64,000 nt of DNA from Candidatus Altiarchaeota archaeon. GTDB lineage: Archaea > Altiarchaeota > Altiarchaeia > IMC4 > SCGC-AAA252-I15. The stretch spans positions 160,001 to 224,000 of the forward strand of contig JAZDNF010000001.1 in assembly GCA_043800255.1 (NCBI GenBank). Direction: 5' to 3'. Below, piece after piece: positions 52,197 to 54,140 of this stretch. Position numbers and translations under genes: made by a program. Positions within the stretch are counted from its first letter, which is position 1. Each line of letters starts with the position of its first letter. The notes beneath the pieces are model-generated. The model had not been told where the DNA came from. It saw nothing but the letters and a program-made list of their open reading frames with translations, and searched no databases.

Positions 52197-52262
52197 GTTA
52201 GTATACCCCCCTACAACCTTAAATATTTAACCCCTAACCGCCAAAAGATAAAGCCCTTAATC

Positions 52263-52282
52263 GGGCTCGTAGATCAGCCTGG
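52263..52282 (+). repeat. Exact 20-bp duplicate of the tRNA-Ala 5' end
   Basis: GGGCTCGTAGATCAGCCTGG occurs at both 52263 and 52369. Confidence 0.9.
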
Positions 52283-52368
52283 ATAGCAACCGTCACGCCC
52301 GGTTGACGTGCGGGGGCCATCTTCGCCCACGGGCTCGATGACCCGTAATAAACACATAAAAATAAACA

Positions 52369-52490
52369 GGGCTCGTAGATCAGCCTGGTAGATCGCCACC
52401 TTGGCAAGAACCCTTTCTTAAGAAGAAAGCGTTCACGGAAAGAACCTTCCAAAATGGTGGAGGCCTCGGGTTCGAATCCCGACGAGTCCA
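52369..52490 (+). tRNA. tRNA-Ala(GGC) with 48-nt intron at position 37/38 (52407-52454)
   Basis: GGGCTCG/CGAGTCC acceptor stem with G3-U70; CCACC/GGTGG anticodon stem; TTCGAAT T-loop; bulge-helix-bulge with TTGG/CCAA helix. Confidence 0.92.
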
Positions 52491-52492
52491 TT

Positions 52493-52555
52493 CAGCCTTT
52501 AGCAAAGGCTGGCGAAAATGTGCGGCATGCGCTCACTCCATTCGCTTAGCCGCAC
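52493..52555 (+). repeat. tRNA-associated double-hairpin element
   Basis: CAGCCTTT-AGC-AAAGGCTG, then GCGAAAAT, then GTGCGGC...GCCGCAC. Confidence 0.7.
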
Positions 52556-52580
52556 CTGACAATTTATCCTATCAATTTTC

Positions 52581-52654
52581 GGGGCCGTAGGGTAGCTTGG
52601 ATATCCTCCCAGCTTGGGGTGCTGGAAACCCGAGTTCAAATCTCGGCGGCCCCA
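52581..52654 (+). tRNA. tRNA-Pro(GGG)
   Basis: GGGGCCG/CGGCCCC acceptor stem; CCAGC-TTGGGGT-GCTGG anticodon arm; CCGAG-TTCAAAT-CTCGG T-arm. Confidence 0.95.
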
Positions 52655-52655
52655 T

Positions 52656-52716
52656 TGAAACTTTTAACGAAAAGTTTCATCAAAAATGTGCTGGGTTCGC
52701 TTTCGCTCACCAGCGC
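52656..52716 (+). repeat. tRNA-associated double-hairpin element
   Basis: TGAAACTTTT-AACG-AAAAGTTTCA, then TCAAAAAT, then GTGCTGG...CCAGCGC; same layout as the element after tRNA-Ala. Confidence 0.7.
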
Positions 52717-52803
52717 TGAATAAGAGATGGCAGACCTGTGCTGCATTCTGCTTCGCCCCAGCAGCGCAGGCGTATTTTTATTCTAATATTCTTATAATCT
52801 CCT

Positions 52804-53325
52804 ATGCGCGGCAGGCTTGTTTTGGGGTTGATGCTGCTCACAGTTCTCCTCTCCGGGTGTCTTGGAGGCGGAAGCAGCAAGGTCATCACCCGATACCAGT
52901 GTTATGACGGCTCGGTAGTATCCTACCTGAACGAATGCTCTAACCCTTCCAACAGCGGCGGCACGCCGAACACGATAGTCCAGACTACAGTATCCTCATC
53001 AGGCGGCACCCAGACCGTAACCTCCTGCCCGACCACGATACCCTGCAACTGCTTCGGCCAGAAGACCACAACCTCAGTGCCTCCGAAACTGGGCCCAATA
53101 TGCGCTAGCGACGGCGAATGCGGCACACTATCCTACGGTGCAATAAGATGCCAGAGCGGCGACGCCTACAAGGTCAAGAACACCCCCAAATGCGACCTTG
53201 ACAACTACGACGGCCAGATGCACTGCAAAACCCTCTCAGAGCTCGAACTCTACCAGGAGTGCACCGACACCCAGAGATGCGCTAAAGACAAGGGCTGCGT
53301 CGCCTACACAGAAGAAAGCGAATGA
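52804..53325 (+). CDS. Cys-rich lipoprotein
   Basis: Lipobox LLSGC; Thr/Ser-rich linker; Cys-rich C-terminal module. Confidence 0.75.
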   Translation: MRGRLVLGLMLLTVLLSGCLGGGSSKVITRYQCYDGSVVSYLNECSNPSNSGGTPNTIVQTTVSSSGGTQTVTSCPTTIPCNCFGQKTTTSVPPKLGPICASDGECGTLSYGAIRCQSGDAYKVKNTPKCDLDNYDGQMHCKTLSELELYQECTDTQRCAKDKGCVAYTEESE

Positions 53326-53340
53326 CGCCTCTTCTATAAA

Positions 53341-53751
53341 ATGAACATCAAAAAAATCCTCCTGTCTGGAATAGTCTCAGGTTTTGTCGTGGCCGTAATC
53401 TTCTGGGCTGCCAGCCTCGCTGCGCAGGCGATTTTCTCCTACAACGCAGCGAAACTTGACGGCATGCGCGATGTCAAGGACCCGGTGATGCTGCTGTTCT
53501 TCCTGTACCCCTGGATATTGTCGTTTGCGATGACCCTCGTTTATGCAAAAATAAGGCCCACGTTGCAGGGCGGCATCGTGCAAAAAGGCAGAAAATTCGG
53601 CATCCTAGTCTGGGTTGTCGCCGCCGTGCCCTCAGCATTCCTCGTATACGCGAGCATGAACTATCCCCTCGGCTTCACAATAAACTCGTTAATCGGCAGC
53701 CTCTTATACACTGTCGCCGCGGGAATGACCATAGCCAAACTGATAGGATAA
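53341..53751 (+). CDS. Four-TM membrane protein
   Basis: Four hydrophobic helices; KG.KFG motif. Confidence 0.7.
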   Translation: MNIKKILLSGIVSGFVVAVIFWAASLAAQAIFSYNAAKLDGMRDVKDPVMLLFFLYPWILSFAMTLVYAKIRPTLQGGIVQKGRKFGILVWVVAAVPSAFLVYASMNYPLGFTINSLIGSLLYTVAAGMTIAKLIG

Positions 53752-53824
53752 CACAGCAGACCCGGAACACTCCCCCCTAAATTCAACTTTTTATCTAAAA
53801 ATTACTAATATAACCCCTCACCCA

Positions 53825-53870
53825 CAGCCCTTTTCTTTTAGGAAAAGAAAAGCGCTGGCGGAAAAGAAAA
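53825..53870 (+). repeat. Free-standing copy of the hairpin found in the tRNA introns
   Basis: CAGC-c-CTTTTCTTTT-AGG-AAAAGAAAAG-c-GCTG followed by GCGGAAAAG. Confidence 0.75.
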
Positions 53871-53947
53871 ATAAACAGGCTGTCACTAATAATTAAGGGC
53901 TACTAAGCGAATGCAAGTGGCTCATCTGGTGCAGCTTTATCCAAGAT

Positions 53948-54093
53948 GCCTCGGTGGCTCAGACTGGTAGAGCGGCAGACTTGTAAGGACCTTTCTTTCT
54001 TAGGAAGAAAGAAACGTCCACGAAAGAGAGAAGAACTCGTGGACAGGGCCTCACGTTATCTGCACGTCGAGGGTTCAAATCCCTCCCGGGGCT
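53948..54093 (+). tRNA. tRNA-Thr(TGT) with 72-nt intron at position 37/38 (53986-54057)
   Basis: GCCTCGG/CCGGGGC acceptor stem; GCTC/GAGC D-stem; GCAGA/TCTGC anticodon stem; GAGGG-TTCAAAT-CCCTC T-arm; relaxed BHB. Confidence 0.9.
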
Positions 54094-54094
54094 A

Positions 54095-54140
54095 TAGACT
54101 TTTCTTTCTTTCCAAAGAAAACGTTAACGAAAAGAAAGAA
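54095..54140 (+). repeat. Degenerate hairpin copy directly after tRNA-Thr
   Basis: TAGAC-TTTTCTTT...AAAGAAAA-c-GTTA followed by ACGAAAAG. Confidence 0.6.

Follow-up and report, generated by a model that had tools for sequence, protein, structure and literature searches.

REP/RAYT and IS200/IS605-derived elements are small, structured hairpins that occur outside genes in many copies, and the ENE-type triple helix of MALAT1 and MEN-beta is made of two U-rich strands and an A-rich 3′ end that lies upstream of a tRNA-like unit (mascRNA). In bacteria, intrastrand triplex motifs have been described as PIT, BoxC and TMECO and sorted into the ITxF classes I to IV, as given in the available part of Holder et al. 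(2015, PMC4666352). The Thermoproteales carry transposed tRNA introns that are near-identical in different isotypes of one genome, implying a gain at the DNA level (PMC4090602 and a 2026 Asgard preprint, both available in part), and the 2026 Asgard census, in its available part, tested copying, mobile elements and reverse transcription and reported no general route of archaeal tRNA intron gain. For Caldiarchaeum, the available part of Sugahara et al. (2012, PMC3293823) presents an integration model in which a tRNA 5′ fragment upstream of the complete gene is a direct repeat that flanks an insertion; the strains differ, intron gain is tied to the event, and the insertion is 1.8 kb long and encodes a recombinase. 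Here we describe an element of three tracts that lies inside and beside tRNA genes in a 64,000-nucleotide stretch of Candidatus Altiarchaeota archaeon (assembly GCA_043800255.1, contig JAZDNF010000001.1, positions 160,001 to 224,000 of the forward strand; this whole stretch is called the window), and that was followed through its genome (1.75 Mb on 17 contigs, 93% complete) and its phylum. On balance, we lean towards reading it as a phylum-wide, triplex-type element of gene ends that has spread by recombination or duplication and has in places become tRNA introns.

The element family is about 45-55 nucleotides (nt) in length, consists of about 80% A/T, and has a constant three-tract design. 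In the 5′ to 3′ direction, an outer stem of 4 bp with an adjoining C-C mismatch comes first, then a T-rich pyrimidine tract of 7-17 nt (Y) and, after a loop of 0-4 nt, its reverse complement (R1). A connector of 7-8 nt follows, in which the outer stem finds its 3′ strand, and last comes another purine tract (R2), the mirror of R1 and so equivalent to the parallel complement of Y. An earlier first-pass annotation, made from the letters of the window, had recorded a tail RCG(G)AAAG behind the hairpin. This tail is present, but it is not a mere tail: it is the start of the full mirror tract R2, which limits the possible mechanisms more than any other feature.

The mirror relation of the third tract was analyzed in the matches of a covariance model (called R1, like the tract) to the genome of the window and to loci of 28 relatives. 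The model was seeded from three near-identical copies outside the window, because MAFFT did not align the Y arm correctly when given all copies, and the E-values of the model are approximate. Of the 67 matches, 55 from 29 genomes had a third tract that scored at least 6 in either reading and were kept; the rest are opposite-strand or partial hairpin matches. The mirror reading was better than the direct-repeat reading in 52 of the 55 copies, tied in three and was worse in none, and when each distinct Y variant was counted once (n = 42) it was better in 39, tied in three and again worse in none. R2 scored 0.875 against its own Y, compared with 0.697 ± 0.012 when the R2 tracts of other copies were used (1000 permutations, maximum 0.738), and the two tracts fitted over their full length in 32 of the 55 copies, compared with a permuted mean of 5.5 and a maximum of 13. 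Since the model prefers one fixed R2 sequence, the covariation of R2 with Y is not model-made.

In the outer stem and the Y:R arms of 51 aligned copies, 739 cells were Watson-Crick pairs, 6 were G.T and 4 were of other kinds. Both helices are nearly perfect and show double substitutions, including TA<->CG and GC<->CG swaps, so that the covariation of the outer stems that had been proposed from the copies in the window is borne out. The R2/Y fit was 0.837 in introns (n = 18), 0.833 in trailers (n = 19) and 0.886 at other sites (n = 20); as it is equal in all contexts, the constraint travels with the element. We know of no templated mutational process that makes mirror copies, and selection on a fold in which R2 lies antiparallel to R1 is therefore the simplest cause. 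Judged from its letters, each copy has the predicted geometry of an intrastrand triple helix, of class II on the sense strand and of class IV on the complementary strand. Such a helix may form on one strand or the other, in DNA or in RNA, and may have a role there.

Variants of the design were also found. In a second subfamily, the connector is a small GC hairpin of 12-13 nt and the arrangement of Y, R1 and mirror R2 is kept; it occupies the introns of Val, Gln, Glu, Arg-UCG, one Ser and one Met tRNA. The introns of Thr-GGU and Gly-GCC have a block of two hairpins within the connector, and this two-hairpin composite is also present at three intergenic sites (best case 90% identity over 94 nt). 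In a long form, the 5′ strand of the outer stem can pair alternatively with the connector or with a distal 3′ segment, and the connector then pairs with a second distal segment, leaving R2 in a loop. With three tracts on one strand, the third of which mirrors the second, the element has the make-up that defines an intrastrand triplex motif. The tracts mostly fit the ITxF rule (stem of 6-15 nt, loops of 1-6 nt) but the connector of 7-8 or 12-13 nt does not; the 7-8-nt form is inside the loop range of 0-10 nt allowed by Hoyne et al., which the available part of PMC4666352 sets beside the 1-6 nt of ITxF.

In terms of tRNA genes, ARAGORN with the option -i returned 36 calls for this genome. Four were dropped (two with 'introns' of 733 and 1102 nt, and two without a tRNA-like T arm), leaving 32 credible tRNAs, 26 of which have an intron, mostly of 40-113 nt. 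The covariance model had 21 full-length sense matches in the whole genome at E<=1.8e-4; its remaining matches are the opposite strand of the same hairpins, or weaker variants. Eight of the 21 copies are in introns (Met, Gly-UCC, Leu-UAG, Cys, Thr-UGU, Ser-GCU, Leu-UAA and Ala) and five begin at a tRNA 3′ end (Gly-UCC, Phe, Leu-GAG, Thr-UGU and Glu), and all 13 are on the tRNA strand. Three follow a C/D-box sRNA or fragments of it (a weak Rfam sR2 match of 31.8 bits, below the gathering threshold). The other five comprise one copy after the stop of an open reading frame (ORF), one at a protein gene, with a diverged duplicate of some 22 codons on one side of it and the gene's real start on the other, and three at 80-115 nt from a tRNA. 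A mechanical scanner for the three tracts found 25 elements in the real genome and 0, 0, 0, 0, 0, 0, 0 and 1 in eight Markov-1 simulations. A chance origin of the family is excluded, and the linkage to tRNA genes that had been expected from the window holds in the genome-wide scan.

A scan for T arms of hidden tRNAs in this genome gave one extra candidate only, and small-subunit rRNA was not found in the assembly; the seemingly missing tRNAs are probably unassembled. In the draft genomes of relatives, many matches of the model lie 20-70 nt from contig ends, which suggests that the repeats of the element break assemblies. Such breaks may be the cause of there being only 32 credible tRNA genes and no small-subunit rRNA here.

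The element family is old and phylum-wide. Matches were found in 29 of the 31 genomes of the order at E<=0.01, with 0 to 46 copies per genome, and in 46 of 61 species genomes, which make up the whole class and the whole phylum, at E<=1e-4 and with stricter filters; all genomes of the phylum are drafts, and a blank does not show absence. Nearest to the aCPSF1 of this genome are protein clusters named for Thermoplasmatota and Methanobacteriota; scans with neighbouring proteins for synteny found no relatives in one case and only bacterial DEAD-box helicases in the other. Placement was analyzed for 36 sense matches in 3-kb loci around the best matches of 28 relatives. These loci were selected by the searches themselves, and, since related copies lack independence, there are fewer events than the counts suggest. 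Fourteen of the 36 start between -3 and +1 nt from the 3′ end of a tRNA called by ARAGORN, with the outer stem including or abutting the discriminator base, 10 are within introns, 5 are at most 150 nt upstream of a tRNA, and 7 are elsewhere, which is an upper bound because some tRNAs are missed by ARAGORN. From the placement at the ends of tRNA and sRNA genes, together with a short form of the element after 5S rRNA, it follows that the home of the family is the first nucleotide past the mature 3′ end of stable-RNA genes, with introns as the second location.

The window has the following features, in which the E-values are those of the covariance model (CM).

52262-52281, + strand: 20-nt 5′ fragment of tRNA-Ala ('F'), with letters identical to 52369-52388
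52282-52368, + strand: 87-nt insert that separates fragment F from the full tRNA-Ala, with trailer-like hairpins and an AT-rich, promoter-like end
52369-52490, + strand: tRNA-Ala(GGC) with an intron at 37/38 (Rfam tRNA, 52.5 bits; ARAGORN -i agrees)
52407-52454, + strand: tRNA-Ala intron of about 48 nt, with the three-tract element at 52407-52444 (CM E 3.7e-7)
52493-52555, + strand: short-type trailer of tRNA-Ala (short Y/R hairpin and A-run), then a second, GC-rich hairpin (from the sequence)
52581-52654, + strand: tRNA-Pro(GGG), intron-less (Rfam, ARAGORN)
52656-52716, + strand: short-type trailer of tRNA-Pro and second hairpin (from the sequence)
53824-53871, + strand: full intergenic copy with outer stem, Y, R1, connector and mirror R2 (CM E 6.9e-7)
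53948-54093, + strand: tRNA-Thr(UGU) with a 72-nt intron at 53986-54057 (Rfam, 50.1 bits; ARAGORN -i)
53986-54050, + strand: long-form element within the Thr intron, core 53986-54032 (CM E 1.7e-10; fold)
54094-54140, + strand: trailer copy at the first base past tRNA-Thr, with R1 partly deleted (CM E 1.1e-7)

The covariance model had four matches in the 64 kb at E<=1e-3, all on the + strand, and no further match at this threshold. The first-pass annotation had counted six co-oriented copies and none elsewhere in the window. Its three quoted sequences are present with exact letters, and the lack of copies elsewhere in the window holds; of its six copies, four are full matches, but the hairpins at 52493 and 52656 are short relatives below the threshold. 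In these two, the layout is shortened to a stem of 4 bp, arms of T3-4/A3-4 and a tail that is an A-run, with a GC-rich hairpin behind it, and this short-type trailer is also present after other tRNAs and after the 5S rRNA of the same genome. In the long form of the Thr intron, the extra 3′ segment pairs, in the computed fold, with the connector and with the 5′ end. The 87-nt insert at 52282-52368 occurs once in the genome (blastn). In its default mode, ARAGORN finds only tRNA-Pro and an odd 92-nt tRNA in the window; both genes with introns need the option -i, and the Rfam alignments show anticodon-loop inserts of 50 nt (tRNA-Ala) and 74 nt (tRNA-Thr).

Several further observations were made in the window. 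In a second repeat, 'family B', a short Y/R hairpin is followed by an A-run that includes ATG and by a GC-rich hairpin whose loop is conserved; this repeat is found after many tRNAs and 5S rRNA in both orientations (in the window at 52520-52555 and 52688-52716, and in reverse orientation at L095:361-415, a locus of a relative). The 92-nt tRNA called by ARAGORN is at 35233-35324 (+) and has the unnatural anticodon AAU ('Ile'), a long variable arm and an apparent 9-nt anticodon loop; a tRNA of Leu or Ser type may have been mis-called here, or the gene may have a tiny intron. Between the tRNA clusters, 52804-53751 contains two small ORFs without a Pfam match, one of 173 amino acids that is Cys-rich and probably secreted, and one of 136 amino acids that is membrane-like.

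The Ala and Thr inserts, as predicted introns, are both at the canonical 37/38 site according to Rfam and ARAGORN -i. When the bulge-helix-bulge of tRNA-Ala was drawn by hand, it had a 5-bp anticodon stem (CCACC/GGUGG), a perfect 4-bp helix (UUGG/CCAA) and two 3-nt bulges; its outer helix is weak, and the central helix was not returned by RNAfold. The hand-drawn structure of tRNA-Thr is relaxed, with the 3′ bulge present and one mismatch in the central helix, and the fold of the Thr arm was better than all 200 shuffles (z = -3.96).

Blastn with single linkage placed 16 of the 26 introns of this genome in one cluster, and with tRNA genes masked, 12 of the 26 matched extragenic sequence at E<=1e-3. 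Over a 50-nt core, mean column identity is 96% among the introns of Gly-UCC and Met and the copy that follows an ORF stop, and similar introns are thus present in tRNAs of different isotype within one genome. One module, by itself or with additional hairpins, makes up introns, leaders and trailers alike, among them most of the 37/38 introns of the genome, in agreement with the first-pass proposal that introns and flanks come from the same element family. Two kinds of intron stand apart. The 93-nt intron of tRNA-Trp (C8:117883-118049 of this genome) is without the element and has motifs similar to boxes C and D, as has the known guide RNA of the haloarchaeal tRNA-Trp intron. The introns at C4:4471, C8:129048 and C12:11512 belong to a separate GC-rich family of two hairpins and have odd ARAGORN positions (35-37); the isotype calls 'Ser aga' and 'Ala agc' for two of them are probably wrong.

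Comparisons among relatives (G001 and upwards; G000 is the genome of the window) and among strains support the view that copies move or turn over. The Gly-UCC intron of G000 matches the tRNA-Gln intron of G017, from a different genus, at 69 of 75 aligned positions. tRNA-Gln(UUG), which ARAGORN miscalls as 'Stop(tta)', was parsed in 20 genomes; 14 genes are intron-less, and 6 have a 37/38 intron, all of them in family f1. In two loci (L142 and L151), the parser ran past the gene end as far as a downstream 3′ fragment; the true length of these genes is 73 nt. The intron state of tRNA-Gln differs between congeners (G008 and G017; G011 and G001), and G025 and G016 have a module-like sequence directly after the 5′ exon. 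The Gln intron of G000 (111-113 nt) is collinear with the spacer between tRNA-Gly and tRNA-Gln in G021, a member of another family in which tRNA-Gln is intron-less. The two agree at 79 of 106 aligned positions, with one extra hairpin accounting for 21 of the 25 gap columns, and by blastn the match is 84.5% over 71 nt, the best among the fetched loci of relatives; the 5′ exon of tRNA-Gln is on the other side of the module in G000 compared with G021. For tRNA-Ala(GGC), 9 of 21 genes have an intron and 12 do not, with differences inside genera; the introns have a common 3′ end, and the 23-nt intron of G030 looks like R2 and the tail without the hairpin. The presence or absence of introns between strains had been named beforehand as a point to check, and both of these tRNAs show it among relatives.

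The strain comparison was performed with DNA contigs from groundwater metagenomes of two studies. A contig that is about 92% identical over 1.4 kb is without 53821-53946, which includes the intergenic copy and 75 further nt, and has 7 other letters instead; the same contig retains tRNA-Thr with its intron, with 2 differences. In a contig of a related strain, 52262 is joined to 52369, such that a 107-nt insertion is absent and 20 letters fit both sides, and another strain has 177 other letters at the 52262-52368 site. Thr-like genes of other organisms have 23-31 letters where G000 has 63-76.

A recurrent scar was observed at many of the extragenic copies, in which a 5′ fragment of a gene (15-66 nt) is followed by the element, a spacer or promoter-like stretch, and the complete gene. 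At tRNA-Ala in the window, the insert is a trailer-like variant with an AT-rich new upstream region. The scar is also present at tRNA-Phe, a C/D sRNA and a protein gene of the same genome, at a tRNA in the closed genome G024 (where a 93-nt unit is repeated twice), at tRNA-Gly of G021 (where the promoter is duplicated too), at tRNA-Gln of G007, G008 and G011, and in three or four of the five upstream cases among the 36 matches of the relatives. At tRNAs, the fragment mostly ends in the D loop. The insertion in the window is bordered by a directly repeated tRNA end and is missing in a strain, as in the Caldiarchaeum model, but differs in being 87 nt long and without a recombinase or integrase. 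In locus L136 (G021:C3:31150-32100, minus), a 22-nt copy of the tRNA-Gln 3′ end with a full element lies about 125 nt past the gene's own trailer element, and by this arrangement 3′ fragments too are duplicated with elements.

In the reading that we lean towards, the element would be a cis-acting structure at the ends of stable-RNA genes. It would be spread by recombination or duplication around tRNA genes, with no transposase of its own, and would leave duplicated 5′ gene fragments behind. A rearrangement that puts a flanking spacer between two tRNA halves still able to form a bulge-helix-bulge would result in an intron; if the fragment ended at position 37 and the second copy of positions 1-37 was lost, the former spacer would become a 37/38 intron. 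This proposed route agrees with the tRNA-Gln comparison, but its intermediate stage was not seen. A role at gene ends is favoured by the fixed placement at the mature 3′ ends of tRNA, sRNA and 5S genes across the phylum, by the fixed orientation, and by the T-rich tracts on both strands. In a stronger form of this proposal, a real three-stranded helix in the cell, either in DNA during transcription or replication or in RNA, marks the borders of stable-RNA exons and provokes duplication and recombination, with spacers becoming introns and reverting. We regard the stronger form as possible but somewhat unlikely; if it is true, the element would be the first natural triple helix with phylum-wide support from three-way covariation, and would offer a mechanistic handle on archaeal intron gain.

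Several points weigh against the preferred reading. The model goes back to three near-identical copies, ARAGORN was the sole source of tRNA calls, the genomes of the relatives are drafts assembled from metagenomes, and the sample of loci is biased. A composite similar to the Gln intron is the Gln trailer in G028, a spacer in G004 and a Gln intron in G025 and G016, and the match to the G021 spacer may therefore be a family resemblance instead of relocation at one locus. When a gene has both an intron copy and a trailer copy, the two are not most closely related to each other, contrary to a simple recent tandem duplication, and tandem duplication of a gene's own trailer was rejected on this ground as a general route to introns. 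T4-T6 runs are present inside introns and are ill-suited to a simple terminator role, since under archaeal termination rules T-runs within introns carry a risk of premature termination; also against a simple terminator, the element is almost absent after protein genes. Triple-helix formation is argued from covariation. For A-rich tracts interrupted by isolated G's, the pyrimidine motif, physically the easier one, is the better fit; it would be on the antisense strand, which is a hint of a DNA-level or antisense structure. The purine motif, which the transcribed intron strand would use, does not form in RNA according to the available part of Holder et al. (2015, PMC4666352).

Among the other explanations, the one that fares best, and that we still consider unlikely, is that the element is an RNA-level module that is freed by RNase Z as a trailer or by the splicing endonuclease as an intron, perhaps as a circle, with the tRNA serving as a processing handle. 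The freed module would act as a small structured RNA or a protein-binding platform. The orientation of the copies in G000 (8 of 8 in introns and 5 of 5 in trailers on the tRNA strand) is as expected from this explanation, and in introns and trailers alike the outer stem begins 0-3 nt after an RNA cleavage site. The wobble pairs (6 G.T compared with 1 C.A) lean weakly to the sense strand, but the count is far too small to decide. The triplex type of the sense strand is, as cited above, said not to form in RNA.

Less likely again is the proposal of the first-pass annotation, in which a REP- or MITE-like (miniature inverted-repeat transposable element) non-autonomous transposon is moved in trans by a transposase or nuclease and targets tRNA 3′ ends and anticodon loops, the fold being the recognition structure of that enzyme. 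The annotation had also suggested that excised introns may reinsert. Copies that are 96% identical in two different tRNA introns and after a protein gene, the absence of the intergenic copy from a related strain, and the range of 0 to 46 copies per genome would all follow from it, and a triple fit that is alike in every context is expected if propagation needs it. However, the nuclease that the proposal calls for did not appear among the families searched. The 93%-complete G000 had no match to PF01797 (Y1/HUH), for which the control was positive in 6 of 14 genomes, no match to PF00078 (reverse transcriptase), and one match to PF00589 (tyrosine recombinase) that is on another contig, far from any copy; other nuclease families were not searched. 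Terminal inverted repeats and short target duplications were not seen by eye; the inverted repeat is internal (Y/R1), and 5′ duplications of the downstream gene, 15-66 nt in length, are found instead. The element thus has neither the terminal repeats, short target duplication and transposase of a MITE, within the families searched, nor the Y1/HUH RAYT gene in the genome that goes with REP elements, and its precise placement at the discriminator base throughout the phylum also argues against a transposon.

It is improbable that an antisense transcript with the order U-rich, U-rich, A-rich forms a pyrimidine-motif triple helix that, immediately ahead of the antisense tRNA, stabilises a convergent transcript at its 3′ end. 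The order of the tracts on the antisense strand is the textbook one of class IV as defined in the available part of PMC4666352, and the next ORF is convergent and 37-51 nt away at three of the five tRNA-trailer copies of G000. At the other two, the neighbours are in tandem, and the ORF list is mechanical; the intron copies make no sense in an antisense reading. That the copies are ordinary T-rich terminator hairpins, alike through low complexity or gene conversion and with an incidental second purine tract, is very improbable even though T3-T6 runs lie right past the gene, both strands are T-rich and stable-RNA genes need tight ends, as this is contradicted by the mirror test (52 of 55 better, never worse), by the permutation test, which rejects chance, by the 0-1 such elements in simulated genomes, and by only 1 of 21 copies directly following an ORF stop.

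The placement of the module differs among close relatives and co-occurring strains, and gain and loss can therefore be reconstructed junction by junction. For the bacterial intrastrand triplex motifs there is no known function and no evolutionary proof that the triplex matters, whereas here three tracts change together over 42 variants, and it was through evidence of this kind that RNA secondary structures gained acceptance. The elements suggest how tRNA introns can arise from neighbouring sequence, in hosts that belong to a little-known phylum of groundwater archaea, and their small size allows biophysical, in vitro transcription or processing tests to be made on them directly.

Literature searches at the level of titles and abstracts found no prior description of such an element. 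Compared with the known systems, it is similar to the REP and IS200/IS605 hairpins in being small, structured, multi-copy and extragenic, but no Y1/HUH gene accompanies it, and REP elements have neither its mirror design of three tracts nor its constant position at tRNA ends. Like MALAT1, it has triple-helix-capable tracts directly beside a tRNA-shaped processing signal; the tract order of MALAT1 is found here only on the antisense strand, while the sense strand has one U-rich and two A-rich tracts and lies downstream of a real tRNA. As in the Thermoproteales, close intron copies are shared across isotypes. There, in the available parts of the sources, the copies are described as introns, whereas the module here has a conserved extragenic home in trailers and is also found at sRNA and protein-gene sites; the introns seen here are all at 37/38. 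In contrast to the Caldiarchaeum insertion, the insertions here are about 90-130 nt long, consist of a trailer-type element and a promoter-like spacer with no gene, and are also found at a C/D sRNA and a protein gene.

The closest likeness in design is to the bacterial triplex motifs as they appear in the available part of PMC4666352. In these too, pyrimidine, purine and mirror-purine tracts follow one another on one strand (class II), and the other strand is of the complementary class; they are multi-copy, intergenic, of no known function and at loci prone to rearrangement; the scar described above agrees with the genomic instability around them. According to the same part of PMC4666352, the bacterial motifs are G/C-rich, with 9-nt stems, and a link to tRNA is not described there. 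The element of this phylum instead is about 80% A/T and has tracts of 7-17 nt, a second loop of 7-8 nt and an added, covarying outer stem, and it adjoins the ends of stable-RNA genes, lies inside introns, and shows tract-by-tract covariation across the phylum.

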